A DNA stretch of 32,000 nucleotides from Thermodesulfobacteriota bacterium (GCA_040755255.1 JBFLZZ010000015.1:1-32000); one strand, 5' to 3'. Shown: positions 220 through 15,618, numbered from the stretch's first letter. Numbers and translations are program-made. Notes: generated from the sequence alone by a model not told the origin.

Positions 220-735
220 TCATTTCAGCAGGGGGGCTATGTCCTGTTCGAGTTGGTCTTTTTCCACCAGGCCCATGTAGCTTTTCACCACGATTCCGTC
301 CCGGTTGACGAGAAAGGACTGGGGGATGCCGGCGATGCCGCCGAAGGCGCGGGCGGTCTTGGTGTTGCCCATGGCCACCGGGTAGGTGATACCCGTCTTC
401 TTGGCGAATTTGTCCACCGCCTTGCGGCTGCTTTCGTCCATGGCGATGCCGATCACCGAGAAGCCCTTGGCGCCGTGCTCGCTCTGGAGGCTGACCAGCG
501 ATGGGATCTCCTCGCGACAGGGTCCGCACCAGGTTGCCCAGAAGTTGATGAGCAGGATCTTGCCCTTGTGCTGGCTGGAGTCGATCACCGTATCGTCGAT
601 GGCCGAGGGCAGGGCGAACTGCGGCATCTGTTCAGGAACGCCGGCGTGGACGGCTCCGGCCGCGGTGAACAGGGGCAGCGAAAAAAAGCTGGCAACCAGC
701 AGGATTTTCCATAAAGATGATGAGCGCTTATCCAT
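220..735 (-). CDS. Periplasmic thiol:disulfide oxidoreductase, TlpA/ResA/DsbE-like thioredoxin fold
   Basis: N-terminal signal peptide followed by the WATWCGPC CxxC motif, at the typical length of 171 aa. ATG confirmed at 735-733. Confidence 0.9.
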   Translation of the reverse strand: MDKRSSSLWKILLVASFFSLPLFTAAGAVHAGVPEQMPQFALPSAIDDTVIDSSQHKGKILLINFWATWCGPCREEIPSLVSLQSEHGAKGFSVIGIAMDESSRKAVDKFAKKTGITYPVAMGNTKTARAFGGIAGIPQSFLVNRDGIVVKSYMGLVEKDQLEQDIAPLLK

Positions 736-3435: not shown

Positions 3436-5361
3436 TCATGTACAGGGAAGGCGGATGACCACCTCGGCGCCGGGTGAGGTGTTGTGCAGGGAGAAGGTGC
3501 CGTTGTGGGCCTTGATGATCCGTTCCACCAGGGTGAGCCCCATGCCGGTGCCATAGGTCTTGGTGGTGAAGAAGGTTTCGGAAACCTTGCCGAGGAAATT
3601 GTCCTGGATGCCGGTGCCGGTGTCGCGGATAAGGGCGACGAGCTGGTCGTCCTCCCTGCTGATGGAGATGGAGAGTTTGCCGCCGTCGGGCATGGCGTCC
3701 ATGGCGTTGCGGAAGAGTTGCAGCAGCATCTGGCGGATACGGCGCCGGTCGAGGAGGAGGCGCGGTTCGTCGGCCGGCGCTTCGACGGCGATGGTGATGT
3801 GCTGCGCTTCCATGTCCCGCTGCAGCAGCAGCAGGGTTTTTCTGGTGATATCGGAGAAGAGGGCGGCTTCCTTCATCGAGGTGGTGTCCTCGACGAAATC
3901 ACGCAGGTCGGCGAGGGTTTTCTCCAGCCGTTCGCTCTCCTTGATGATCACTTCGCTGTACTTGCGCAGACTGTCGTCCAAGGTTCGGCGATTGAGCAGG
4001 CGGGCGACGCCGCCGATGGCGGTCACCGGGTTGCGGATGTTGTGCACCATCTGCGCCGACATCTGGCCGAGGGCGGAATAGCGCTCGGCCTGCACCAGCT
4101 GGTCCTTGTTCTTGGCCAGCTCCTGGTACAACTCCTCCAGCTCCCGCAGCTTTTTCTGCATGTCGATGTAGAGGTGGCTGTGTTCGATGGCAAGGCTTGC
4201 CTGACTGGCGAAAAGCTCCAGGGCGTTTAAGTGGCTGTCCAGAATCGGCGACCGGGTGACGAAATTGTCGGCGATGATCACCCCGAAGGAGCGTCCCGGG
4301 GAAAAGAGCGGCACGACGATGAAGTTTTCCTCCTTGAGGAGGTCGATGAGCTGATCGGGGCGAGGCAGCAGCGGCGAGGTTTCGAGGATCGGGTTGCGCC
4401 GGTCGAAGGCGTTGGGGTAGCTGGGATGATTGGTCTGCAGGGCGTGCCGGTCGTGGAGAATGGGGCGGCCGCCGTTGCCGGCGTCGATACGGATGGAGCG
4501 GCGTTCCAGGGCGGAGCGGATCAGGATGTTGCTGTTGTCGGAAACCGGGATGCGCATCTGGCGGATGATGACGTTGACGTCCTGATCCTCGAAGGCGCAG
4601 CTGGTACTCAGGTTGTGGACGATGTCGAGGAATTTCAGATCCTTTTGCTGCATCTCCTGCCAGACCCTGGCCGCGGTTTCCCGGCAGGTGGTGCCGATGG
4701 CGAGTCTTCCCTCCAGATATTTGCCGGCGTCGTCGAACAGGGCGAGAAAAGCGCGGTTGAACCGCAGACCCTCGTTGGCGGTGATGCCGACCAGGATGGC
4801 GAGCAGCAGTTTGTCGAGCTCGACGGTGCTGAGATAGACCGTGTTCATCTTCAGGGAGAGCTGGTGCATGAGCTGGATGCGGAAGTGGGCTTGCTCCAGC
4901 TCTTCCTGGTACTTGCGGTTCTCGAAGATCAAACGTCGTTTTTCGAGGTTCTTGCGGACGACGAAGAGGATCTCGCTGAATTTGGCCGGCTTGGCCAGAT
5001 AGTCGTCAGCGCCCTTGCGGATGCAGTCCATGGCGACGTGCAGATCGGCGACGCCGGTGAGCATGACAATGGCCAGATCGGGGTAGCGGGACTGCAGCTC
5101 GGGAATGAGTTCGGCGCCGCTGGAATCGGGCAGGCCGATGTCGAGCAGCACCATGGCGACCTTGCGATTGGCAAGGCAGGCGTGCAGGTCGGCGGCGCTG
5201 CCGCCTTCGACCACGGCCAGGTTGTTTTCCTCGAGATACTGCGCCAGCGGTGCCCGGATGGCGGGATCATCGTCGATGATCACCACCACCTCACCGTTGG
5301 TGAGCAGCTGGCCGGGGGCGAGGGAGATGTGCTGTGGCGAGATGGAGTAGGGGGTCAGCAT
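3436..5361 (-). CDS. Soluble hybrid sensor: receiver (REC) + GAF-like + HisKA/HATPase histidine kinase
   Basis: REC signatures: VVVIIDDD, LLDIGLPD, KP. H-box: MVHNIRNPVTAIGG. ATPase boxes: FRNAMDAM, RDTGTGI, GTGMGL. There are no TM spans. Start set to ATG 5361, not 5499. The 5499 start directly abuts a terminator hairpin (5501-5527), and TTGACA/TATGAT promoter-like hexamers lie between 5499 and 5361. Confidence 0.85.
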   Translation of the reverse strand: MLTPYSISPQHISLAPGQLLTNGEVVVIIDDDPAIRAPLAQYLEENNLAVVEGGSAADLHACLANRKVAMVLLDIGLPDSSGAELIPELQSRYPDLAIVMLTGVADLHVAMDCIRKGADDYLAKPAKFSEILFVVRKNLEKRRLIFENRKYQEELEQAHFRIQLMHQLSLKMNTVYLSTVELDKLLLAILVGITANEGLRFNRAFLALFDDAGKYLEGRLAIGTTCRETAARVWQEMQQKDLKFLDIVHNLSTSCAFEDQDVNVIIRQMRIPVSDNSNILIRSALERRSIRIDAGNGGRPILHDRHALQTNHPSYPNAFDRRNPILETSPLLPRPDQLIDLLKEENFIVVPLFSPGRSFGVIIADNFVTRSPILDSHLNALELFASQASLAIEHSHLYIDMQKKLRELEELYQELAKNKDQLVQAERYSALGQMSAQMVHNIRNPVTAIGGVARLLNRRTLDDSLRKYSEVIIKESERLEKTLADLRDFVEDTTSMKEAALFSDITRKTLLLLQRDMEAQHITIAVEAPADEPRLLLDRRRIRQMLLQLFRNAMDAMPDGGKLSISISREDDQLVALIRDTGTGIQDNFLGKVSETFFTTKTYGTGMGLTLVERIIKAHNGTFSLHNTSPGAEVVIRLPCT

Positions 5362-5382
5362 GGCTGGCGGTTGTCCTTCCCC

Positions 5383-5414
5383 ATCATACTGCGGGTTTCG
5401 GCGATTTCTGTCAA
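5383..5414 (-). promoter_or_regulatory. Putative sigma70-type promoter for the REC-GAF-kinase gene
   Basis: On the minus strand, TTGACA (5414-5409) and TATGAT (5388-5383). The spacer is 20 nt, longer than canonical, so this is tentative. Confidence 0.3.
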
Positions 5415-5500
5415 GAAGGAATGATTCCTGGCCGGTAAAGCGCCGGCGTGCCGTATCCGGCAGCCGGCGGAGAGGGCGGATGGATGGGGAGGCCGACATG

Positions 5501-5527
5501 AAAAAGCCCCGTCTGGCGGGGCTTTTT
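5501..5527 (-). terminator. Bidirectional intrinsic terminator closing the sulfur-trafficking cluster
   Basis: AAAAAGCCCCG-tctgg-CGGGGCTTTTT: a 6-bp GC stem extended by A/T, with a 5-nt loop. The U-tract is present on either strand. It lies 26 nt downstream of the 57-aa ORF stop. Confidence 0.75.
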
Positions 5528-5552
5528 CATGAAAAGACGATCCGGATGGCGG

Positions 5553-5726
5553 CTACCACCAGCAGATGGTCTGGTCGGCGGCCATGATGGCGTCGACCAG
5601 TTTGTCGTAATCCGGAGTGGTGCCGTAGAGATTGATGCTGCTGTTGTCGCGGCCCTCGGAGACGATGGCGACGAGCTTCTTGGTGGTCTCGTTCGGTTCG
5701 GAACGGTAGATGTGCAGGATCTTCAT
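5553..5726 (-). CDS. 57-aa protein, last gene of the cluster; possible miniature DsrH/TusB-like protein
   Basis: Hand translation: MKILHIYRSEPNETTKKLVAIVSEGRDNSSINLYGTTPDYDKLVDAIMAADQTICWW*. ATG at 5726-5724 with GGAG-containing upstream sequence (aGGAGtacGGAGcagacacc). It starts 24 nt after the upstream gene stop, has GC3-rich codons, and is followed by the terminator. It falls below the 60-aa cutoff of the ORF track. Confidence 0.65.
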   Translation of the reverse strand: MKILHIYRSEPNETTKKLVAIVSEGRDNSSINLYGTTPDYDKLVDAIMAADQTICWW

Positions 5727-5750
5727 GGTGTCTGCTCCGTACTCCTGGGA

Positions 5751-6050
5751 TTAATAGGTGCCGTAGGGGACGATGATGCTCATCTCCCGCAGCTTCTGAC
5801 CGAGTTCCTCGATGGTGAGCGGAGTCAGGCCGTTGGTGTCGCAGTTGGCCTGGACATTGGAGTAGACTTCGCCTTCCATGTCGCGAATCCAGTCGAGGTT
5901 TTCCGAGTTGTAGTCGTCGAACTTGTCCAGGGTGGCGTCGACGACGGCGCAGTAGGAGTAGTGGTTTTCCACGGCAAGACCGAGGGTCGAGCGCATGCAG
6001 TCGAGGGCGAACCCCTTGTTGGGGACCATGAAACAGATTTTGTGGGACAT
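5751..6050 (-). CDS. 99-aa conserved-hypothetical-type small protein of the sulfur cluster (possible DsrF/TusC-like fold)
   Basis: AAGGAG RBS 5 nt before the ATG at 6050, and 14 nt after the dsrE-like stop. The sequence starts with a beta-strand-like ICFMV. The family assignment is weak. Confidence 0.7.
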   Translation of the reverse strand: MSHKICFMVPNKGFALDCMRSTLGLAVENHYSYCAVVDATLDKFDDYNSENLDWIRDMEGEVYSNVQANCDTNGLTPLTIEELGQKLREMSIIVPYGTY

Positions 6051-6064
6051 GGGGCTTCTCCTTC

Positions 6065-6379
6065 TTACAGGGTCAGGTACTTTTCGTAGTCTTCGATGAT
6101 GGCGCCGTGCTGGGCCTGGGTCGCCATCTTCTCCTGGGTGAGACCGGCAGGGATGACCGCGACGTCAAAGCCCATTTTCTTGTAGCTGTCGGCGCAGATG
6201 GAGACGTCGTCGGCCAGTTCGCACAGATCCTTGAAATCCGGCTTCTGGGTGAGCATGGTGCCGCTCCAGGTGAAGAACACCTTGACCTTGATCCCCTTGT
6301 TCTTGGCCGCCTTGACGACGCCCTTGATATGATCCCAGTTGTTGGGATTGGTGACGAAGATGCCTAAGCTGTTAGCCAT
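6065..6379 (-). CDS. DsrE/DsrF-family small sulfur-relay protein (104 aa)
   Basis: N-terminal LGIFVT strand. The Cys-containing segment VSICADSYKKMGF resembles the DsrE/TusD active-site C-x(n)-G loop. GAGGAG RBS. Confidence 0.75.
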   Translation of the reverse strand: MANSLGIFVTNPNNWDHIKGVVKAAKNKGIKVKVFFTWSGTMLTQKPDFKDLCELADDVSICADSYKKMGFDVAVIPAGLTQEKMATQAQHGAIIEDYEKYLTL

Positions 6380-6392
6380 GTTGTTCTCCTCA

Positions 6393-6438
6393 TGAAAGAA
6401 AAATGCCGCACCGTTGGCAGGAACTGACGGTGCGGCAT
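6393..6438 (-). terminator. Intra-cluster hairpin plus U-tract between tusA-like and dsrE-like genes (attenuator or partial terminator)
   Basis: Perfect 12-bp inverted repeat ATGCCGCACCGT (6403-6414) / ACGGTGCGGCAT (6427-6438) with a 12-nt loop. On the minus strand it is followed by TTTTTCTTTC, then the GAGGAG RBS of the next gene. Confidence 0.6.
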
Positions 6439-6457
6439 ACTTGGTTAGTCGATCGGA

Positions 6458-6700
6458 TCAACCCTTCTGGATGAAGAAGCGGAAGAAGCCGTCGCCGTCC
6501 AGGGCGCCCAGGAACTTGTGGCCGGAGCGTTCGCACCAGCCGGGCAGATCGTTCTTGGAACCCGGGTCGGTACCCTGGATCTCCAGGACCTGGCCGCTGC
6601 TGATGTTGTTGATCGCCTTCTTGGTGCGCAGGAGCGGCATGGGGCAGCTCAGGCCCTTAGCATCCAATACTTCATCGGCTTTCAGTGTGTTCAGATCCAT
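6458..6700 (-). CDS. tusA: TusA/SirA-family sulfurtransferase (80 aa)
   Basis: The canonical motif LDAKGLSCPMPLLRTKKAI (CPxP) at the expected position. AGGAGG RBS. Confidence 0.9.
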   Translation of the reverse strand: MDLNTLKADEVLDAKGLSCPMPLLRTKKAINNISSGQVLEIQGTDPGSKNDLPGWCERSGHKFLGALDGDGFFRFFIQKG

Positions 6701-6803
6701 TGTTTACCTCCTGTCTTTGGGTTTGATGCTCTCTCTCAGCGACTCTACCCGCTGGTCTGCGGCGGGCGTCGCAAGAAATCCGTGGTAGCCGTTCCGCCGG
6801 CTG

Positions 6804-8051
6804 TCACATCTCCAGGGTGAACTTGTTGGTATCCTCGTTCCAGTCGACGATGACGTACCAGGCGGCCATGGCCAGGAAGATCAGGGCGAGGGTGCCGCCG
6901 TAGCCGAGGGAATCCGGCATGTAGACGTAGGAGCCGAGTTTGCTGCCTTCCTCGATGCTGCCTTCCAGGTTGTACTTTTGCACCAGCAGGGAACCGAGCG
7001 CGCAGGTGATGCCGAAGATCGGGGTGACGATCCACAGCTTGATCTGGCCCTCGCCCACCCGCCACAGGGTACCGGTGCCGCAGCCGCCGGCCTGGATGGC
7101 GCCGAAGCCGAAGAGGATGCCGCCCAGCACGCCGCCCCAGCCGAAGGTGCCGCGGACGTAGTGCATCCAGTAGTAATCCATGGGGTTGCCGTCAAGGTCG
7201 GCGAAGCCGATGTACTTGCTTTTGATGATCGCGCCGCCGATGGCGAGGATGACGACGGAAAGCGCCACCGATTTCGCCAGTTCGCAGTCGCCGGTCATGT
7301 GCGGTTCGCGGAAGCCCTGAATCATGCACCAGCGGCCGCGCTGGAAGGCGTAGCCGAGCAAGGCTGCGATGATCAGCACGCCGCCCAGTTTGGAGACGTC
7401 GCCGTTGGCGTACTTGTAGGCACCGCCGACCAGAGCGGCCAGGGCGATGATGCCGAGGACCGTCTGCAGGGCGTTCGGCAGTTCGATGGTCTTGCCGCCG
7501 CCGACGCCCCAGGTGACGTTTTCCATTTCCCAGTAGACATACTTGAGGCCGATGACGGCGCCGGCGATCAGGCCGACCATCATGGCGAAACCGTGGGCGG
7601 AGAGGTTGCCGATGGCGTTGTAGAAGCCGCCGACGTTGCAGCCGCCGGCCAGGGTGGCGCCGGCGCCCATGAAGATGCCGGCGACGATCGCCTTGACCAT
7701 TTCGAGCTTGGGCGGGATACGGAAGGCGAAATTGCCGCCGAGACAGGCGGAAAGAAAGGCGCCGCCGACGAAGCCGAGGCCGATGACCGAACCGGAGTGG
7801 GTGAGAAAGGCGTTGGGGGTATCGCTCTCGAAGACATCGGCAAAACCCAGGGTCTCCCACAGGCCGCTGCCGTAGATGATCCATTCGCCCCAGTTCCGCA
7901 CTGCGCCGACCGCCCCCCATGGCCGATCCCAGGCCAGCATCATGATGCTGAAAAGCGCCACCAGAATGCCGACGGTGTTGGCTTCCCAGTTGTCCCGACA
8001 AAGCTTCTTGTACAGCCCCTTCGCTTTCTCCATCATCAGGTTTTCACTCAT
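6804..8051 (-). CDS. YeeE/YedE-family sulfur-compound (thiosulfate/sulfur or selenium) transporter
   Basis: Polytopic membrane protein with two sulf_transp-type motifs (TLAGGCNVGGFY and IQAGGCGTGTLW). Start moved to ATG 8051 (MSENLMMEKAK...), which has GGAAGGAGGAAAGGAG immediately upstream. Confidence 0.9.
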   Translation of the reverse strand: MSENLMMEKAKGLYKKLCRDNWEANTVGILVALFSIMMLAWDRPWGAVGAVRNWGEWIIYGSGLWETLGFADVFESDTPNAFLTHSGSVIGLGFVGGAFLSACLGGNFAFRIPPKLEMVKAIVAGIFMGAGATLAGGCNVGGFYNAIGNLSAHGFAMMVGLIAGAVIGLKYVYWEMENVTWGVGGGKTIELPNALQTVLGIIALAALVGGAYKYANGDVSKLGGVLIIAALLGYAFQRGRWCMIQGFREPHMTGDCELAKSVALSVVILAIGGAIIKSKYIGFADLDGNPMDYYWMHYVRGTFGWGGVLGGILFGFGAIQAGGCGTGTLWRVGEGQIKLWIVTPIFGITCALGSLLVQKYNLEGSIEEGSKLGSYVYMPDSLGYGGTLALIFLAMAAWYVIVDWNEDTNKFTLEM

Positions 8052-8150
8052 ACGGTTTCTCCTTTCCTCCTTCCTGACTTCCTGAGCGTTGGCGGCGATC
8101 GGCAGTGGCCCGTCGCCACCCAATAAATGAATACTCATTCAGAAGATCAC

Positions 8151-8179
8151 CTATTACTCTCTCCTTTTTTTTTTGTCAA
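8151..8179 (-). promoter_or_regulatory. Putative promoter of the yedE-tusA-dsrE cluster, with a homopolymeric A-tract in the spacer
   Basis: On the minus strand, TTGACA (8179-8174) is followed by nine further A residues (T run at 8165-8174 on plus). The best -10 candidate is a weak TAATAG at 17 nt. The local sequence is AT-rich in a GC-rich genome. Confidence 0.3.
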
Positions 8180-8327: not shown

Positions 8328-8660
8328 TCAGGGCCGCAGCTGCAGCTGCGCCAGCATGGTGTCGACGAAATGGAGGAGATACTCCCGCTGGCGCGGGGTG
8401 GCGTAGCTGACGCAGTCGCAACGGATGATGCGGCGGCTGCGGACGAGCAGTTCGAAGCTGACGCCGTCTTCGGTCAGCTCGACGGCAAAGAAGAAGGGGG
8501 CGCAGTCGCCGTGGCCGAGTTGGGCTTCTCCCGACAGGTCGCCGGGCAGCTCCAGCCAGTGGATGCCCTCGACCCCGCCCGGTTGACAGGTGTCGGCGAG
8601 ATAGGCGGAGATTTTGCCGAGTTCGGCGCGGTTCAGTTCGTCGACAACGATTTTTCGCAT
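8328..8660 (-). CDS. Hypothetical 110-aa cytoplasmic protein containing Cys residues, family not recognised
   Basis: GC3-rich codons. It is co-directional with and immediately upstream of the sulfur cluster. It has no TM spans or signal peptide. Cys motifs: DTCQP, GDCAP, RCDC. Confidence 0.6.
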   Translation of the reverse strand: MRKIVVDELNRAELGKISAYLADTCQPGGVEGIHWLELPGDLSGEAQLGHGDCAPFFFAVELTEDGVSFELLVRSRRIIRCDCVSYATPRQREYLLHFVDTMLAQLQLRP

Positions 8661-10277: not shown

Positions 10278-11477
10278 TCATTCCTCGGTGGCGGCGATCA
10301 CCGCCTTTCCGATGCGGTTGCCCATTTCCACGCACTGCTTCAGGGTGTCGTGGGCCGGGACGTACTTGACCCGCAGTCCCTCCTCGATGATGTCGAACTT
10401 CATCTCGGTCATCGCCTCGTTCATCAGTTTCACCGCTTCGCCGCTCCAGCCGTAGGAACCGAAGGCGGCGCCGATCTTGTTGGTGGGCCGCAGGCCGCGC
10501 ATGTACATGAGGAAACCCGCCATGCGCGGCAGCATGCCGTTGTTAAGGGTGGCGCAGCCGAGGATCACCGCCTTGGCTTCGAGCACGTCGGTCATCACCT
10601 CGCTGCGATGGTTCACCGACAGATCGACCATCTTGACGGAAACCCCGGTTTCGGCGATGCCGGCGGTGACCGCCTTGGCCATCTTCTTCGTGCTTTCCCA
10701 CATGGTGTCGTAGATGACCAGGGCGCGGCGCTTGCCCTTGTTCTGCGACCAGCGGGCATAGGCATCCATGATGTCGCCGATGTGGGAGCGCCAGATGAGG
10801 CCGTGGTCCGGGGCGATCATCCGGACGTCCAGCTTCATCTCGGTCACCTTGGCCAGCAGCTTCTGGACCAGGGGAGAGTAGAGGGTGAGGATGTTGGCGT
10901 AGTATTTCTGCGCCTGTTCCATCAGGAAGGTGTGGTCCACCTCGTCGTCGAACCGTTCGCTGGTGGCGAAGTGCTGGCCGAAGGCGTCGCTGGAAAAGAG
11001 CAATCCGTCCTCGGCGACGTAGGTGAACATCGAGTCCGGCCAGTGCAGCATCCGCGTTTCCAGGAAGTGGAGGGTTTTGTTGCCGAGGGAAAGCGTGTCG
11101 CCGGAGGCCACTTCCACCAGGGGCCAGTCGGTGGGGTGAAAATGCTCCATGATCGCCTTCTTGCCCATCTTGGAGCAGAAGATCTTCTCCGGCCTGACCC
11201 GCTCGACGATCTGCGGCAGGGCGCCGGAATGGTCCATCTCCACGTGATTGACGATGAGATAGTCGATCTTTTCCGGCTCGGTCAGCTGGGAGATGTGGTG
11301 CAGCAGATCGCCTACGTGGGATTTCTTCACCGTATCGATCAGGGCGATTTTTTCGTCCTTGATCAGGAAGGCGTTGTAGGTGGTGCCCTTGTAGGTGGAA
11401 TAGCCGTGGAAGTCGCGGATATTCCAGTCGATGGCACCGACCCAGTGGATGTTGTCGGCTATCGTTTGTGGGTTCAT
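10278..11477 (-). CDS. fprA: Flavodiiron protein (FprA / rubredoxin:oxygen oxidoreductase type; O2/NO reductase)
   Basis: Metallo-beta-lactamase-like domain with the diiron motif NHVEMDHSG (HxExDH), followed by a flavodoxin-like C-terminal domain. 399 aa. Confidence 0.95.
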   Translation of the reverse strand: MNPQTIADNIHWVGAIDWNIRDFHGYSTYKGTTYNAFLIKDEKIALIDTVKKSHVGDLLHHISQLTEPEKIDYLIVNHVEMDHSGALPQIVERVRPEKIFCSKMGKKAIMEHFHPTDWPLVEVASGDTLSLGNKTLHFLETRMLHWPDSMFTYVAEDGLLFSSDAFGQHFATSERFDDEVDHTFLMEQAQKYYANILTLYSPLVQKLLAKVTEMKLDVRMIAPDHGLIWRSHIGDIMDAYARWSQNKGKRRALVIYDTMWESTKKMAKAVTAGIAETGVSVKMVDLSVNHRSEVMTDVLEAKAVILGCATLNNGMLPRMAGFLMYMRGLRPTNKIGAAFGSYGWSGEAVKLMNEAMTEMKFDIIEEGLRVKYVPAHDTLKQCVEMGNRIGKAVIAATEE

Positions 11478-11502
11478 GGCAATCCTCTGCTGGGTAATAG
11501 GC

Positions 11503-12015
11503 TTATTCCTTGGCGGCCGGCATGACGAACCGGCGCGCCGCGAGTTCGGTGTCCAGCACGAACAGGCCGCTTACGTCGGTGCCGATCAGTTTCAGCCGGT
11601 CGACCAGGGTGGCGGCGGTCGATTCCTCCTCCACCTGTTCGGAGATGAACCATTGGAGGAAGTTGTTGGTGGCGTGGTCCTTTTCCTTGATGGCCAGGTC
11701 GACGAGACCGTTGATCAGGCCGGTTACCTTCTGTTCGTGTTCGAGCACCTGTTGAAATACCTCCAGGGTGGACTTCCACGTGGCTGGCGGCTGGGCGATG
11801 GCCTGCAGCACCACCCGGCCGCCCCGGTCGCTGACGTAGTTGAACATCTTCATGCCGTGGAACATTTCCTCCTGGGTCTGCTGCTTCATCCAGTTGACGA
11901 AGCCCGGCAGGCTGATCGAGTCGAAATGGGTGGCCATGGACAGATAGAGATAGGCGGAGAAGAACTCGGCGTTGATCTGGTCGTTCAACGCCTTTTCCAT
12001 TTTCTTGCTCAGCAT
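11503..12015 (-). CDS. ftn: Ferritin (non-heme, FtnA-like)
   Basis: LNDQINAEFFSAYLYLSM and QEEMFHGMK ferroxidase-centre motifs. 170 aa. Confidence 0.9.
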   Translation of the reverse strand: MLSKKMEKALNDQINAEFFSAYLYLSMATHFDSISLPGFVNWMKQQTQEEMFHGMKMFNYVSDRGGRVVLQAIAQPPATWKSTLEVFQQVLEHEQKVTGLINGLVDLAIKEKDHATNNFLQWFISEQVEEESTAATLVDRLKLIGTDVSGLFVLDTELAARRFVMPAAKE

Positions 12016-12016
12016 G

Positions 12017-12391
12017 TCATGCCCTCCAGAGTCCGTGCAGGTTGCAGTATTCGCGGGCGGTGACGCCGCTTTCGGTTACCGGGAAGAAGGCCTCGGCCTT
12101 GTCGCCCGGTTTGAGGAACTGCCGCCAGGCCTTGCCGCCGGCGATGAGCTCGATCCACTCGATGTAGTGTTTCTCCTCCATGGGATGGGCGACCGCGCCC
12201 ACCTTCACCAGGTAGCCGTCGGCGGTCTTCTCGATCACCGGCACGTGTTTTTCCTTGGCGGCGTCCACCGTGTTTTCCGTCATCAGCCGCATGGGCTGGC
12301 CGCAGCAGACCAGTTCGCCGGCGCCGGCATGGAGCATCTCGACGATGTTGCCGCACAGTTCGCATTTGTACACTTCCAGTTGCTTGGTCAT
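12017..12391 (-). CDS. dfx: Desulfoferrodoxin (2Fe superoxide reductase)
   Basis: N-terminal desulforedoxin Cys cluster CELCGN...VCCGQPM. C-terminal SOR centre-II ligands ([24 protein letters not shown]). The start of ftn is 1 nt after the dfx stop. Confidence 0.95.
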
Positions 12392-12439
12392 GATCCTACC
12401 TCCTGTGTTCGGTTGAAAAGGGTGACGAAGGAAAAGGGC

Positions 12440-13015
12440 TTACCAGTTTTCGCCGAGAAGTTCGAAGTGGGCCTGGGTATGGGCGCATGCCGGGCAGATG
12501 CCGGGGGCCTCGTGTTCTTCGTGGAGATAGCCGCAGTTGCGGCAGCGCCAGGTGGTTTTCCCGGCCCGCTTGAATACCTTGCCTTCCCTGATGTTGGCCG
12601 CCAGCGCCAGATAGCGTTTCTCGTGCTGCTTTTCCGCGACGGCGATGGCAAGAAAGGCGGAGGCGATCTGGTCGAAACCCTCCTCGCGGGCGATGGCGGC
12701 GAACTCCGGGTACATGTGGGTGTGTTCGTGATTTTCGCCGGCGGCGGCGGCGACGAGATTGTCGGCGGTGGAGGCGATGCAGCCTGCCGGAAAGGCGGCG
12801 GTGAACTCCACCTCACCCCCCTCGAGGAACTTGAACAAACGCTTGGCGTGCTCCCGTTCCTGATGGGCGGTCTCTTCGAAGATGTCGGCGATCTGGACGA
12901 AACCTTCCTTTCTGGCCTTGGAGGCAAAGTAGGTGTAACGGTTGCGGGCCTGGGATTCACCCGCGAAGGCGGTGAGAATGTTCCGTTCGGTTCGGCTGCC
13001 CCTGAGCGTGGTCAT
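12440..13015 (-). CDS. rbr: Rubrerythrin
   Basis: Diiron ExxH motifs (EREHAKR, ENHEHTH, EKQHEKR) plus a C-terminal rubredoxin-like CRNCGY...CPAC. Start set to ATG 13015, which has AGGAGG upstream. Confidence 0.95.
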   Translation of the reverse strand: MTTLRGSRTERNILTAFAGESQARNRYTYFASKARKEGFVQIADIFEETAHQEREHAKRLFKFLEGGEVEFTAAFPAGCIASTADNLVAAAAGENHEHTHMYPEFAAIAREEGFDQIASAFLAIAVAEKQHEKRYLALAANIREGKVFKRAGKTTWRCRNCGYLHEEHEAPGICPACAHTQAHFELLGENW

Positions 13016-13273
13016 CGGTTGGACCTCCTGTCTTTTTTTTTGATCGGAAAATCGTGCCTGCGGCGGCTGTACCGCAGCGCCTTGCCTTCTGTCGTCTGCT
13101 CCGAGTCCGGAGGTCACCGTTCCGGAATGGAGATGATCATAGCAAGAGAGGGCGATGGAATTCCAGCACTATGTTGGTCGGATCGGCCCGGAAACAGGAC
13201 CAAAGAAGTCTTCTTTCTGTGCCTGGCGGCAAGCACAGGCGGTGCGGCTGGCTCCAGGCGCAAACCGCCGGGG

Positions 13274-13669
13274 TCAGCTGGCCGCACAGTGCGGACAGAG
13301 TCCGATGAATTCCGTGTGATGGCGCAGGATGTGATAGGGGGTCGAGGCCCGCACCTGCTCTTCCAGCCGGTAGTCGGGGGCGATGTCGATGTCCTCGACC
13401 TTGTTGCATTTGAGACAACGGATGTGGTAATGAACCTCTGCGTTGCCGTCGAAGCGTTTCTGGGAGCCGCCCACGTCGATTTTCTGGATGATGCCGCAGT
13501 CGGACAGGATATCGAGGTTGCGGTACACGGTTCCCAGACTGATTTTCGGCATCCTGCGGCGGAGAATCTGGTACATCTCGTCGGCCGTGGGATGGCTTTT
13601 CAGTTTGCGAAGCTCCTCGAGGATGACCTGTCTCTGCTTGGTCATACGCAGACAGCCGGCGGTCGTCAT
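13274..13669 (-). CDS. perR: Fur-family regulator, PerR-like
   Basis: wHTH N-terminal domain, HYH metal motif, and CLKC...CPHC structural Zn site. It heads the rbr-dfx-ftn-fprA genes. Start set to ATG 13669 (GGGAGGA RBS). The longer ORF start would lie inside the operator. Confidence 0.85.
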   Translation of the reverse strand: MTTAGCLRMTKQRQVILEELRKLKSHPTADEMYQILRRRMPKISLGTVYRNLDILSDCGIIQKIDVGGSQKRFDGNAEVHYHIRCLKCNKVEDIDIAPDYRLEEQVRASTPYHILRHHTEFIGLCPHCAAS

Positions 13670-13683
13670 GATTTCCTCCCTCT

Positions 13684-13698
13684 TGAGAATCATTATCA
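13684..13698. promoter_or_regulatory. Fur/PerR-box (7-1-7 inverted repeat) in the perR leader
   Basis: TGAGAATCATTATCA matches the 7-1-7 consensus TGATAATnATTATCA at 14 of 15 positions. It sits 15 nt upstream of the perR start, in an AT-rich divergent region shared with the sat-like gene. Confidence 0.65.
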
Positions 13699-13911
13699 CC
13701 AGGATACTAAGAACTCGGATAGTTTACAATAAAAAATATCTTCCCTTGCAAGAAACGCGGCGGCGAACAATTCCGCCCAGAATGGCACAAAAGTCGGCGC
13801 GTTTCCAGTAAAAACGATAAAATAACTCCTGCATGACGGGCGCGCCGGCTCCCGGCCCGCTGCCGGACGGCGGCGCCGCCCGAAAACGGATGAAATCAAG
13901 GAAAAGACGGT

Positions 13912-15618
13912 ATGAGCGACCTGCACCACAACGACTACGCGGAAAGTCTGCTGGTCCATTTCCGCAGGGTGGAAAACCTGCGCGAGGAGGCCCTGGGCCT
14001 TCCCTCCCTCGACCTCAACGCCAGACAGCTCTGCGATCTTGAACTGCTGCTCAACCGGGCACTGTACCCGCTGGCGGGATACAATACGGAGGAGGAGTAC
14101 CAAAGCATCCTCGACACCATGCGGTTGCCCGACGGCACTCCCTGGCCGATTCCCGTCTGTCTCGACGTCAGTGCCCGCTTCGCCGAAGGGCTCCAGGCCG
14201 GCCGGCGCATCGCCCTCAACGACCCGGAGGGCTTTCTGCTGGCGGTGTTGAGCATCCGTTCCATCTGGCAGCCCGACAAGGCGGCGGAGGCCCGGGCGGT
14301 TTACGCCAGCGACGATCCCGGCGCCCATCCCGGGGTGCGGCGGCTGCTGGAGGAGGTAGGGCCGTGCTACCTGGGGGGCAAGCTCGAAGGGCTGCACCTG
14401 CCCATCCATTACGATTTCGCCGAACTGCGCCTGGCCCCCTCCGAGGTGCACCGCCGTTTCTACCAGAACGGCTGGCGCAAGGTCATCGGCTACCATTCCC
14501 GGTCCTGCATGCACCGGCGGGAGCGGCAGATGGTCCTCGCCTCGGCCCGTGAGGCCGGCGCCAACATCCTGCTGCATCCGGTGGTCGAGCCCGGCAGTCT
14601 GGAAAACATGGATCACTACACCGGCGTCCGCTGCCACCAGAAGATCGCCGACCGCTTCCCCCGCAACATGACCATGCTGGCGATCATGCCCTACGCCAGC
14701 CGGATGGCCGGGCCGAAGGAGGCGCTCTGGCAGGCGATCATCCGCAAGAACTACGGCTGCAGCCATTTCCTCGTCAGCGAGGACCATGCCGATCCCCATG
14801 CCGGCACCGATCGTCTCTTCTATCCCCGGCACGCGGCCCAGGAACTGGTGCAGGGGCTGGAGGGAGAAACCGGCATCGTCATGATGCCGGCGGTGGAGAT
14901 GGAATACGTGGAGGAGCGGGCTCAGTACATTCCGGCCGCCGAGGTGACCGCGGAGATGAAGGTCCTGCAACTCTCCGAGGACGAATTGCGGCGGCGGATG
15001 GAGCGGAGTCTGCCGGTGCCGGAGTGGTTCACTTACCCGGAGATCGTCGCCGAACTGCAGTATGCCTACCCCCCCCGGCTCAAGCAGGGCTTCACCGTGT
15101 TCTTTACCGGGCTTTCCGGCTCGGGGAAATCGACCCTGGCCAAGGTGCTGTTCGCCCGCTTTCTGGAAATGCGCGACCGGCCGGTGACCCTGCTCGACGG
15201 TGACATCGTCCGCAAAAACCTGTCCAGCGAGCTCACTTTTTCCAAGGAACACCGCAATCTCAACATCACCCGCATCGGTTTTGTCGCCAGCGAGATCACC
15301 AAGAACGGCGGCATCGCCATCTGCGCCCCCATCGCCCCCTACCCGGAATCGCGCCGCGCCGCCCGGCAGATGGTGAGCAGGTACGGCGGCTTCGTCGAGA
15401 TTCACGTGGCCACCCCCATCGAGGTATGCGAGGCGCGCGATCGCAAGGGCCTCTACGCCAAGGCCCGCGCCGGCAAGGTCAAGGGGGTCACCGGAGTTTC
15501 CGACCCCTATATCGCCCCCGAGCATCCGGAACTGGTCATCGATACCAGCGATGTCAGCCCCACCGAGGCGGCCCAGGAAGTGCTCCTCTATCTGGAAGAG
15601 CAGGGCTATCTGGCCTGA
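13912..15618 (+). CDS. cysC: Fusion of an ATP-sulfurylase-like domain (degenerate motifs) and adenylylsulfate (APS) kinase
   Basis: C-terminal domain from about residue 390: P-loop GLSGSGKST, LLDGDIVR, and a typical CysC core. The N-terminal roughly 390 aa has sulfurylase-like architecture (LYPLAGY, LLHPVV), but the catalytic motifs are changed (see findings). Confidence 0.9.
   Translation: MSDLHHNDYAESLLVHFRRVENLREEALGLPSLDLNARQLCDLELLLNRALYPLAGYNTEEEYQSILDTMRLPDGTPWPIPVCLDVSARFAEGLQAGRRIALNDPEGFLLAVLSIRSIWQPDKAAEARAVYASDDPGAHPGVRRLLEEVGPCYLGGKLEGLHLPIHYDFAELRLAPSEVHRRFYQNGWRKVIGYHSRSCMHRRERQMVLASAREAGANILLHPVVEPGSLENMDHYTGVRCHQKIADRFPRNMTMLAIMPYASRMAGPKEALWQAIIRKNYGCSHFLVSEDHADPHAGTDRLFYPRHAAQELVQGLEGETGIVMMPAVEMEYVEERAQYIPAAEVTAEMKVLQLSEDELRRRMERSLPVPEWFTYPEIVAELQYAYPPRLKQGFTVFFTGLSGSGKSTLAKVLFARFLEMRDRPVTLLDGDIVRKNLSSELTFSKEHRNLNITRIGFVASEITKNGGIAICAPIAPYPESRRAARQMVSRYGGFVEIHVATPIEVCEARDRKGLYAKARAGKVKGVTGVSDPYIAPEHPELVIDTSDVSPTEAAQEVLLYLEEQGYLA

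Follow-up and report, generated by a model that had tools for sequence, protein, structure and literature searches.

A stretch of 32,000 nucleotides from a Thermodesulfobacteriota genome (GCA_040755255.1 JBFLZZ010000015.1:1-32000; in the following, the window) carries a group of five genes, raising the question whether these encode a new kind of sulfur-trafficking system or a known one, and which function they would fulfil. The five minus-strand ORFs that a sequence-only reading had placed at 5553-8179 were all found there. They comprise a yedE-like gene (longest ORF 6804..8138, 444 aa; likely gene 6804..8051), tusA (6458..6700, 80 aa), a DsrE-like gene (6065..6379, 104 aa; DsrE type II), chp1 (5751..6050, 99 aa; DsrF type II) and chp2 (5553..5726, 57 aa; DsrH type II). 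Pfam matches, homologue families and an independent gene call on a second assembly of the same organism, which contains the same five genes, indicate genuine genes rather than chance ORFs. For the DsrE-like protein, chp1 and chp2, hundreds of conserved homologue clusters each were found, with nearly identical lengths. The predicted Shine-Dalgarno sequences were present upstream of all five genes (GGAGGA/AAGGAG, AGGAGG, GAGGAG, AAGGAG and AGGAG). The affiliation to the Desulfuromonadales has to be corrected, since the exact protein sequences belong to a Thermodesulfobacteriota MAG of the Desulfobulbales type, with Desulfobulbaceae and Desulfurivibrio as nearest relatives.

The five genes are the already-described YTD (yedE-tusA-dsrEFH type II) sulfur-carrier cluster of Desulfobulbales, and the window is one more orthologous instance of this known system and no new kind. 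Members of all five families lie side by side, as determined from the ORFs, Pfam, the family-level assignment of DsrE and the seed matches, and their content and order, as stated in the sequence-only reading, match the published yedE-related, tusA, dsrE-like, chp1 and chp2 genes (PMC9751629, PMC12998232). Compared to the published seeds, chp1 showed 39% identity (E 3e-25) and chp2 49% (E 4e-22), and the lengths of the published YTD HMMs, 99 for chp1 and 57 for chp2, equal the sizes in the window (PMC9751629, PMC12998232). The sizes of 104, 99 and 57 aa are the family norm and not the local miniaturisation that had been proposed. The DsrE-like protein, chp1 and chp2 are 64-73%, 55-57% and 61-65% identical to the orthologues of three type II strains (D. 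dismutans AMeS2, Desulforhopalus singaporensis DSM 12130 and Desulfopila aestuarii DSM 18488), and the DsrE-like protein is 77% identical to a D. alkaliphilus protein. Table S5 of PMC13293266 gives each of these four strains as a (YeeE-)TusA-DsrEFH type II carrier. In addition, 78 of 80 related loci retain the order tusA-dsrE-chp1-chp2. The dsrE-like, chp1 and chp2 genes were re-identified in 2026 as coding for a DsrEFH-like heterotrimer, "DsrEFH type II" (PMC13047784, PMC13293266). These two papers arrive at what the sequence-only reading had suggested, a reduced DsrEFH-like relay that is linked with an importer in the membrane, while the statement that the cluster has no biochemical characterisation is outdated, the complex of the small proteins having been characterised in 2026 (PMC13293266).

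The proposed Pfam comparison assigned the YedE-like protein to Sulf_transp (8.9e-44) and TusA to its own family, and DsrE at the family level (PF02635). The YedE-like protein contains at least eight hydrophobic segments. Its most likely start is Met30 (position 8051), giving 415 aa, because a strong Shine-Dalgarno sequence is located there, the alignments of relatives begin at about residue 9-40 and the independent gene call also comprises 415 aa. In a PDB sequence search it matched YeeE of Spirochaeta thermophila (6LEO; E 5.5e-15), its two halves having changed places relative to YeeE, and the three cysteines of YeeE have equivalents in C242 (RGRWC), C324 (AGGCGTG) and C138 (AGGCNVG). Among the 80 loci, yedE lies inside the fetched flanks in 74, in variable orientation. 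The arrangement of the window, with yedE co-directional and directly upstream, is a minority type (7/80 Desulfobulbales loci), and 63/80 loci are divergent; in four Desulfurivibrio loci yedE is about 5 kb away from the cluster. The minority orientation is a point absent from the 2026 papers (PMC13293266, PMC13047784).

The 80-aa protein was confirmed as a canonical CPxP TusA, with a Pfam score of 84.4 bits compared to a cut-off of 28.6 (PF01206; 4.9e-24) and Cys19 in the motif SCPMP. The PDB sequence search revealed similarity to Ta1170 (2.1e-15) and to E. coli TusA/YhhP (4.5e-12), and the score against the E. coli TusA equivalog model stayed below the cut-off (58.6 vs 78).

The assignment of the three small proteins is more gradual. 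The window copy of the DsrE-like protein itself does not reach the Pfam threshold (E 0.037; 14.6 bits vs 22.7), and all 20 aligned members of its family match PF02635 at E<=1, the best with 4.5e-6. The family HMM reached 6.3 bits against Allochromatium vinosum (A. vinosum) DsrE, a score matched by 1 of 2000 shuffles. Altogether, fold and sequence tests support the proposed membership of the 104-aa protein in the DsrE family. Its sole invariant cysteine, Cys62 in VSIC(A/V)DSY, is found in 20/20 aligned relatives and is probably the counterpart of Cys67 in Electronema aureum (E. aureum) and Cys78 in A. vinosum, judged from the motif hhhC-x7-G and a Pfam match over residues 19-76. For chp1, neither Pfam nor NCBIfam gave a match. 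The AlphaFold2 model (pLDDT 96, pTM 0.87) shows a strand-helix alternation, and its top Foldseek matches in the PDB are DsrE-family proteins, namely 3pnx (E 0.013, probability 0.99-1.0), 2fb6 (TMq 0.67) and 2qs7, with no PDB match at or under 1e-3. The model is in line with a DsrE-family-like fold for the 99-aa protein; sequence similarity of chp1 to DsrF and TusC was at chance level.

The family of chp2, likewise without a Pfam match, comprises 237 representative clusters at E<=0.001, and among those listed nearly all have 54-61 aa. The AlphaFold2 model (pLDDT 95.8) shows a strand-helix-strand-helix-strand order, for which Foldseek found neither DsrH nor TusB in the PDB. The family HMM and the stretch of A. 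vinosum DsrH used align with each other over their last 19 residues (7.8 bits, reached by 0/2000 shuffles), which weakly suggests a relation of the 57-aa protein to DsrH by a signal confined to the C-terminus. The sequence profiles of the small proteins did not reach DsrEFH (2HY5) or TusBCD (2D1P) in the PDB, and hhalign against TusB, TusC and TusD gave non-significant probabilities below 2%. The expectation of a single conserved cysteine in each small protein holds true for the DsrE-like protein and fails for the other two: chp1 is without an invariant cysteine, and the cysteine in the C-terminal ICWW of chp2 is variable, distant members having Ser, Val or Thr in its place. The missing invariant cysteine of chp1 and the dispensable one of chp2 fit scaffold roles.

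A comparison with the cluster of E. aureum GS, which also occurs in Desulfurivibrio, Desulfocapsa and others, showed the same five families, the same tusA-dsrE-chp1-chp2 order, one invariant cysteine in the DsrE-like subunit and similar subunit sizes, with a chp2 of 6516 Da compared to 6814 Da for E. aureum DsrH type II. The differences concern a DsrF-like protein (chp1) about 1.5 kDa smaller and the position of the catalytic DsrE cysteine (62 instead of 67). Type I DsrEFH (A. vinosum, 2HY5) and TusBCD (E. coli, 2D1P) likewise consist of three adjacent small subunit genes with the sulfur-binding cysteine on one subunit (DsrE/TusD), TusA as donor and DsrC/TusE as acceptor, and a DsrE-like fold is reported in the literature for type II as for these. 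In contrast, the window subunits have 104, 99 and 57 aa compared to 130, 136 and 102 aa in the PDB chains, and the smallest comprises three strands and two helices only. By sequence they do not fall into type I/TusBCD, given the sub-threshold DsrE-like score and the lack of Pfam matches for chp1 and chp2. Furthermore, it is type II genes that typically have yedE and tusA in their neighbourhood, and type II co-occurs with reductive and not with oxidative dsrAB (PMC13293266).

Based on these relationships, the cluster very probably encodes a YTD/DsrEFH type II relay that passes sulfur from the YedE-like protein via TusA and the DsrE-like protein to DsrC. The YedE-like channel would let a reduced sulfur species, most likely polysulfide-derived sulfane sulfur, through the membrane, and Cys19 of TusA would accept it as a persulfide. 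From there it would be handed to Cys62 of the DsrE-like subunit and, one-way, from the DsrEFH-like complex to DsrC. The steps from TusA to DsrC are modelled on experiments with proteins of the cable bacterium E. aureum, where DsrE, F and H type II co-purify 1:1:1, TusA transfers sulfur to DsrE in vitro in a reaction abolished by Cys67Ser, and DsrEFH type II passes sulfur on to DsrC one-way (PMC13293266). Finally, DsrC would supply reductive-type DsrAB/DsrMK, by which the sulfane sulfur would be oxidised to sulfite, either for a net oxidation of sulfide or sulfur or as the oxidative part of a disproportionation. Since dsrC and dsrAB do not occur within the 32-kb window, DsrC as acceptor is assumed from related genomes; reductive dsrAB is also present in 73.9% of the genomes carrying the cluster (PMC13293266). 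Regarding the physiological direction, reverse-Dsr sulfur oxidation is argued for by PMC13293266 and disproportionation by PMC13047784 and PMC9751629, and the cluster alone is described as an unreliable marker (PMC12998232).

The original YTD proposal goes further and regards the cluster as a disproportionation-specific module, a dedicated entry point for elemental sulfur disproportionation. This is conceivable and, in our view, somewhat doubtful. The cluster occurs in every S0 disproportionator surveyed in PMC12998232 and is up-regulated under such conditions, and Desulfurivibrio and Desulfocapsa are among the close relatives. However, many non-disproportionating sulfate reducers also have the cluster and some disproportionators are without it (PMC13293266, PMC12998232), and as the oxidative branch of disproportionation the same observations also fit the relay to DsrC. 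A thiosulfate uptake and decomposition system of the YeeE/YeeD (TsuA/TsuB) type, in which YedE would import thiosulfate, TusA bind and split it and the DsrEFH-like proteins accept the products for assimilation or thiosulfate disproportionation, appears unlikely. The known pair (S. thermophila 6LEO, 8J4C) also combines a three-cysteine Sulf_transp protein with a TusA-family partner, and the significant similarity of the YedE-like protein to S. thermophila YeeE/TsuA with all three cysteines present speaks for it, as do the higher abundance of YTD proteins in Desulfolithobacter during thiosulfate disproportionation (PMC9751629), the role proposed by PMC13047784 and a Sat-CysC fusion gene 6 kb from the cluster. 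Nonetheless, besides the swapped halves of the transporter and the extra DsrEFH-like genes of the window, the scores remain far under the NCBIfam cut-offs (76-79 bits vs 400-645 for TsuA; 20 vs 147.5 for TsuB/YeeD), and thiosulfate did not persulfidate TusA, DsrEFH type II or DsrC of E. aureum in vitro and did not serve these orthologues as sulfur donor (PMC13293266).

That the cluster acts outside energy metabolism, supplying sulfur in the manner of TusBCD for tRNA 2-thiouridine or some other biosynthetic thiolation, is highly improbable. Such a relay would share the architecture of E. coli TusA and TusBCD, in which a single catalytic cysteine goes with three small subunits, and the C-terminal motif of chp2 is weakly TusB-like (2.6 bits, 32/2000 shuffles). 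Against this stand the non-significant hhalign results described above and the frequent co-occurrence with reductive dsrAB; tusE, mnmA or any tRNA-modification gene was not found nearby, and linkage to a membrane transporter is unexpected for such a role. Selenium, imported and passed on as by a YedE/YedF pair, had been kept as an alternative in the sequence-only reading; its probability is close to negligible, and this alternative gained no support. In its domain order the YedE-like protein runs parallel to the selenium model YedE/FdhT of NCBIfam (positions 5-381 of 387), and a TusA-like partner with weak similarity to YedF is present as well. However, the scores are far under the cut-offs (96.6 vs 350 and 18.6 vs 200 for YedE/FdhT; 37.3 vs 79 and 29.4 vs 110 for YedF), the partner being a single-domain TusA of 80 aa and not a YedF equivalog. 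A selenium-metabolism context is also absent, with no selD, selA, selB or selenoprotein genes found in the window, and the other partners are a DsrEFH-like set, the type shown to carry sulfur to DsrC.

For the transcription of the relay genes, the sequence on the minus strand offers several signals. The AT-rich region described 5' of the unit was recovered, with a GC content of 0.33 over 8120..8179 compared to 0.60 for the cluster. In this stretch, a sigma-70-like promoter is plausible at 8151..8179, where TTGACA (8179..8174), a 17-nt spacer and TAATAG (8156..8151) were read by eye. It escaped a consensus promoter scan owing to the final G of the -10 hexamer. At the other end, the claim of a clean terminator agrees with a strong 15-bp hairpin 3' of chp2, the last gene (5497..5531; AUGAAAAAGCCCCG-CCAGA-CGGGGCUUUUUCAU), with A and U runs on its flanks (-29.7 kcal/mol, z -4.23; 0/200 shuffles fold equally well). 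Since this intrinsic terminator is symmetric, it is possibly bidirectional. Transcription would probably start in the AT-rich region 5' of yedE and end at this hairpin.

A second, terminator-like hairpin, missing from the sequence-only reading, lies between tusA and the DsrE-like gene (6394..6438, minus strand). A 12-bp stem (6438..6403) is followed by UUUUCUUUC, and the hairpin with its U-run folds with -28.1 kcal/mol (z -4.16; 0/200 shuffles fold equally well). In 50 of 75 related loci this intergenic region contains a hairpin of <= -12 kcal/mol with T4 or a longer T run behind it, compared to 4.7% of dinucleotide shuffles; the 2026 papers on the cluster (PMC13293266, PMC13047784) do not mention the hairpin. 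It probably shifts the proportion between the transcript's two halves. In E. aureum, the expression of dsrEFH-like is higher than that of tusA (PMC13047784), to which a simple terminator role is ill-fitting.

Two neighbouring genes on the same strand are conserved beside the cluster. Downstream, 3436..5361 encodes a cytoplasmic hybrid sensor kinase with the Pfam domains REC-GAF-HisKA-HATPase and 641 aa from Met47, a length also obtained in the independent gene call. Orthologues with at least 45% identity were found in 35/80 loci, directly after yedE in 32 loci of the divergent type and after chp2 in three of the window type. Upstream, 8328..8660 encodes an orphan protein of 110 aa, conserved in the motifs GHxxCGPF and NLHCxC and invariant at His50, Cys53, Cys81 and Cys83, for which Pfam and PDB sequence searches gave no match. 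A homologue lies inside the dsrE flanks of about 6 kb in 34/80 loci, mostly alongside the kinase. The kinase went unmentioned in term searches of the texts of PMC13293266 and PMC13047784, and the 110-aa protein is likewise absent from both papers. Both genes stay beside the cluster despite at least two rearrangements of the gene order, and they could form a dedicated sensing or regulatory module for intracellular sulfane sulfur. Through the conserved tusA-dsrE hairpin, the carrier-to-complex ratio could in addition come under post-transcriptional control. As a tentative extension that we put forward with rather low confidence, cluster, kinase and 110-aa protein may constitute a larger seven-gene unit in one Desulfobulbales sub-lineage.

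The main value of these results is confirmatory, as a reading of the raw sequence independently reached the hypothesis for which publication and biochemical support came in 2026. The kinase, the 110-aa His/Cys protein, the tusA-dsrE hairpin in two thirds of the loci and the variable orientation of yedE are modest new leads, which could help to understand the control of relay expression, a point unaddressed in the current literature. More generally, the cluster bears on the question how bacteria with a 'reductive' Dsr pathway, such as cable bacteria, Desulfurivibrio and sulfur disproportionators, oxidise sulfur.

The cluster comprises five co-directional ORFs on the (-) strand in 5553..8179. 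Here, ORF calling reproduced the arrangement described in the sequence-only reading, with a yedE-like gene (6804..8051), tusA (6458..6700), a DsrE-like gene (6065..6379) and the genes chp1 (5751..6050) and chp2 (5553..5726). The YedE-like protein matched Pfam Sulf_transp (8.9e-44), and the 80-aa TusA, carrying Cys19 within SCPMP, matched Pfam TusA (4.9e-24). For the 104-aa protein the Pfam DsrE match remained below the threshold (E 0.037), and for the 99-aa and 57-aa proteins no match was obtained in Pfam or NCBIfam. All five ORFs are genuine genes. Conserved homologues of nearly equal length form hundreds of clusters for each of the small proteins, and the independent gene call of another assembly contains the same five genes. 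The lengths in this call, 415 aa for YedE and 641 aa for the downstream kinase, agree with the starts inferred from where the alignments of relatives begin. The longest ORFs of yedE and of the kinase are over-extended at the 5' end by 29 codons (8052..8138, (-)) and 46 codons (5362..5499, (-)), the shorter starts being backed in both cases by homologue alignments and the independent gene call. The apparent ATG of the over-extended kinase ORF falls on the terminator hairpin, at its 3' end.

The regulatory signals claimed from the sequence were found as well. Shine-Dalgarno sequences precede all five starts, the region upstream of yedE is AT-rich (GC 0.33 across 8120..8179), and a putative promoter upstream of yedE can be read from the sequence (TTGACA, 17 nt, TAATAG), which was unflagged by the consensus scan. 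A 15-bp hairpin with A and U runs on either side follows the last gene (5497..5531, (-)). The stem and loop rules of the promoter and terminator scan are unsuited to these elements, none of which it flagged. They were therefore tested by folding, which gave a dG of -29.7 kcal/mol and a z of -4.2 for the hairpin 3' of chp2. No known RNA family of Rfam was found in the whole window, including the leader and intergenic regions.

In gene content and gene order, the five genes correspond to the published YTD cluster (PMC9751629, PMC12998232), as suggested in the sequence-only reading. This identity was tested against the supplementary seed sequences of PMC12998232: the 99-aa protein showed 39% identity to a chp1 seed (E 3e-25) and the 57-aa protein 49% identity to a chp2 seed (E 4e-22). 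The corresponding HMMs comprise 99 positions for chp1 and 57 positions for chp2 (PMC12998232). What the cluster is and how it is built are shown here for the window itself. Two papers from 2026 give dsrE-like, chp1 and chp2 a new reading, that of a DsrEFH-like complex (PMC13047784, PMC13293266). The former modelled a double heterotrimer and termed it a divergent, non-orthologous analogue; the latter introduced the name DsrEFH type II and purified the proteins of the cable bacterium Electronema aureum as a 1:1:1 complex. In these experiments, the TusA persulfide gave one sulfur to DsrE, a transfer abolished by Cys67Ser, and DsrEFH type II handed sulfur one-way to DsrC (PMC13293266). Consequently, the statement that the cluster has no biochemical characterisation is outdated.

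Reportedly, about 985 genomes carry the cluster. Table S5 of PMC13293266 names among its carriers D. alkaliphilus, D. dismutans AMeS2, Desulforhopalus singaporensis DSM 12130 and Desulfopila aestuarii DSM 18488. The latter three are represented among 80 related loci compared with the window (as L011, L069 and L077), and their identities to the window were 64-73% for the DsrE-like protein, 55-57% for chp1 and 61-65% for chp2. The mass of the DsrH-like protein in the window, 6516 Da, fits that of E. aureum DsrH type II (6814 Da). The idea of miniaturised DsrEFH partners holds, except that it describes no local peculiarity, since small size is the norm for the whole family.

The three small proteins differ in how far the DsrEFH assignment can be followed. 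Homology of the 104-aa protein to DsrE is supported by the comparison of families: Pfam DsrE was matched by all 20 aligned relatives at E<=1, with 4.5e-6 as the best value, and the family HMM aligned at a sensible position in A. vinosum DsrE, scoring 6.3 bits, which one of 2000 composition-preserving shuffles reached. The sole invariant cysteine among the aligned relatives is Cys62 in VSIC(A/V)DSY. Profile searches against PDB sequences with the three small-protein families returned neither DsrEFH nor TusBCD.

The 99-aa protein likely has a DsrE-family-like fold, as judged from its confident AlphaFold2 model (pLDDT 96, pTM 0.87), in which strands and helices alternate. The best Foldseek matches in the PDB were of the DsrE family, i.e. 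3pnx (E 0.013, prob 0.99-1.0), 2fb6 (TMq 0.67) and 2qs7. These matches are weak; none in the PDB reached 1e-3, and A. vinosum DsrEFH (2HY5) was absent from the best 50. Comparison with DsrF and TusC sequences remained at chance level, and the chp1 family contains no invariant cysteine.

For the 57-aa protein, the label DsrH rests mostly on gene position and the published complex, to which a weak C-terminal signal is added. Over its final 19 positions (vDYekLvddIfesDkVicW), the chp2 HMM aligns with the 19 residues (VDYAGFVDLTTECDTVQAW) that end the stretch of A. vinosum DsrH compared; this C-terminal alignment scored 7.8 bits, which none of 2000 shuffles reached. With E. coli TusB the same C-terminal register was obtained, and 32 of 2000 shuffles scored as high. 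A resemblance of the N-terminal ILHxYRSxP to DsrH/TusB (ILHTVNKSP / LHTLHRSP), noticed by eye, was unsupported by a targeted HMM test with shuffles. The AlphaFold2 model of chp2, confident at a pLDDT of 95.8, describes a minimal strand-helix-strand-helix-strand unit, for which Foldseek found no DsrH or TusB and nothing relevant in the PDB. A profile search against 1.84 billion representative proteins yielded 237 clusters. The best 150 of these are almost all 54-61 aa long, with a few longer ones of up to 217 aa, and include no full-length match to a DsrH-sized protein (~100 aa) that would bridge the families. In P0362 (217 aa) and in P0503 (131 aa), two of the longer ones, the 57-aa match lies at the N- or C-terminus; the longer family members are probably miscalls or fusions and may be gene-call read-throughs. 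The C-terminal motif ICWW often has Ser, Val or Thr in place of its Cys in distant members, while Trp56 is invariant. This replaceability agrees with the published finding that DsrH type II is not persulfidated.

For the proteins of the window we favour a relay of sulfane sulfur, with its transfer steps inferred from the biochemistry of E. aureum. Sulfur would pass from the YedE-like channel to Cys19 of TusA, from there to Cys62 of the DsrE-like protein within a trimer with chp1 and chp2, and finally to DsrC and the Dsr system. The window itself contains no dsr, apr or qmo genes. A Sat-CysC fusion of 568 aa with PUA_2, ATP-sulfurylase and APS_kinase domains is encoded about 6 kb from the cluster (13912..15618, (+)).

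The main rival is thiosulfate uptake of the YeeE/YeeD type. The YedE-like protein aligns with S. thermophila YeeE (6LEO) at an E of 5.5e-15 with the halves swapped. In this alignment, residues 226-349 correspond to YeeE 6-116 and residues 63-163 to YeeE 218-318. C242, C324 and C138 (415-aa numbering) occupy what we take to be the positions of the three essential cysteines of YeeE, all of which are kept. The NCBIfam YedE/FdhT model is collinear with the protein, as would suit selenium handling. The scores lie far under the cut-offs of both the TsuA and the YedE/FdhT model, placing the protein outside the thiosulfate (TsuA) and selenium (YedE/FdhT) equivalogs, and the TusA protein is far under the cut-offs of the NCBIfam YedF models. 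'YedE-related' is the right label for the transporter.

Thiosulfate was not a sulfur donor for the E. aureum proteins (PMC13293266), and selenium handling is unlikely. The same applies to tRNA thiolation: comparison of the family alignments with single E. coli TusB, TusC and TusD by hhalign gave positionally sensible short pieces that were not significant. The literature disagrees on the transported substrate of the sulfane-sulfur relay and on its physiological direction, which may be either net oxidation or disproportionation's oxidative branch (PMC13293266, PMC12998232, PMC13047784).

The 80 loci are the best related ones drawn from one-genome-per-species contigs, and 78 of them retain the order tusA-dsrE-chp1-chp2; the other two are located at contig ends. 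Since nearly all are labelled as Desulfobulbales lineages or carry broad labels only (Desulfobulbia, Desulfocapsaceae, Desulfurivibrionaceae, Desulfobulbaceae), the earlier mention of Desulfuromonadales was wrong. Exact matches to the three small proteins were obtained in an NCBI MAG with the label Thermodesulfobacteriota bacterium (locus tags AB1568_06715 and AB1568_06720, on a contig of 81,996 bp). The nearest named relatives are Desulfobulbaceae bacterium A2, at 89%, and Desulfurivibrio alkaliphilus, at 77%. The position of yedE is more variable: it is co-directional and directly upstream, as in the window, in 7 loci and divergent in 63. In four Desulfurivibrio loci it lies about 5 kb off, in agreement with the entries that Table S5 of PMC13293266 gives as 'TusA-DsrEFH type II'. 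Identity of YedE to the window was 67-79% for the co-directional type compared to 52-63% for the others, while that of the DsrE-like protein was similar in both groups. This split suggests two YedE lineages or a rearrangement.

Two neighbours accompany the cluster. One is a cytoplasmic hybrid sensor kinase (3436..5361, (-); REC-GAF-HisKA-HATPase by Pfam), without mention in PMC13293266 or PMC13047784. Of the 80 loci, 35 encode an orthologue at 45% identity or more: in 32 of these, of the divergent type, it directly follows yedE, and in the other 3, of the window type, it follows chp2. Directly upstream of yedE, an orphan protein of 110 aa (8328..8660, (-)) carries GHxxCGPF and NLHCxC motifs, with His50, Cys53, Cys81 and Cys83 invariant in its family. 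It has neither a Pfam nor a PDB sequence match, and a homologue adjoins the cluster in 34 of the 80 loci. Its identification as the published 'chp3' was rejected, the chp3 seed being unrelated and its HMM comprising 159 positions. Both genes occur in 29 loci and neither in 40, several mixed cases being located at contig ends (raw counts, uncorrected for phylogeny). They have stayed near the cluster despite the two or more rearrangements that separate the arrangement types. Further genes in the window are an oxidative-stress island (10278..13699, (-)) with a flavodiiron protein (ODP + flavodoxin), a ferritin-like protein, desulfoferrodoxin, rubrerythrin and a Fur/PerR-family regulator, a peroxiredoxin (220..735), and, near the cluster, a HIT and a HEAT-repeat protein.

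A second hairpin lies between tusA and the DsrE-like gene (6394..6438, (-)), with a 12-bp stem followed by UUUUCUUUC and a z of -4.16 on folding. Of 75 related loci, 50 have a comparable hairpin, followed by a T-run, in the same spacer, compared to 4.7% of dinucleotide shuffles, and the stem sequence varies among loci. As a partial terminator, it would lower the expression of dsrEFH relative to tusA. In E. aureum dsrEFH is expressed higher than tusA (PMC13047784), the opposite of this expectation; alternatively, the hairpin may act in the processing or stability of the RNA.

Altogether, the observation is confirmed and the earlier interpretation is largely right, yet the cluster had been described in print before and has since been characterised. 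What remains as modest new leads are the kinase, which is conserved, together with the 110-aa protein and the tusA-dsrE hairpin.
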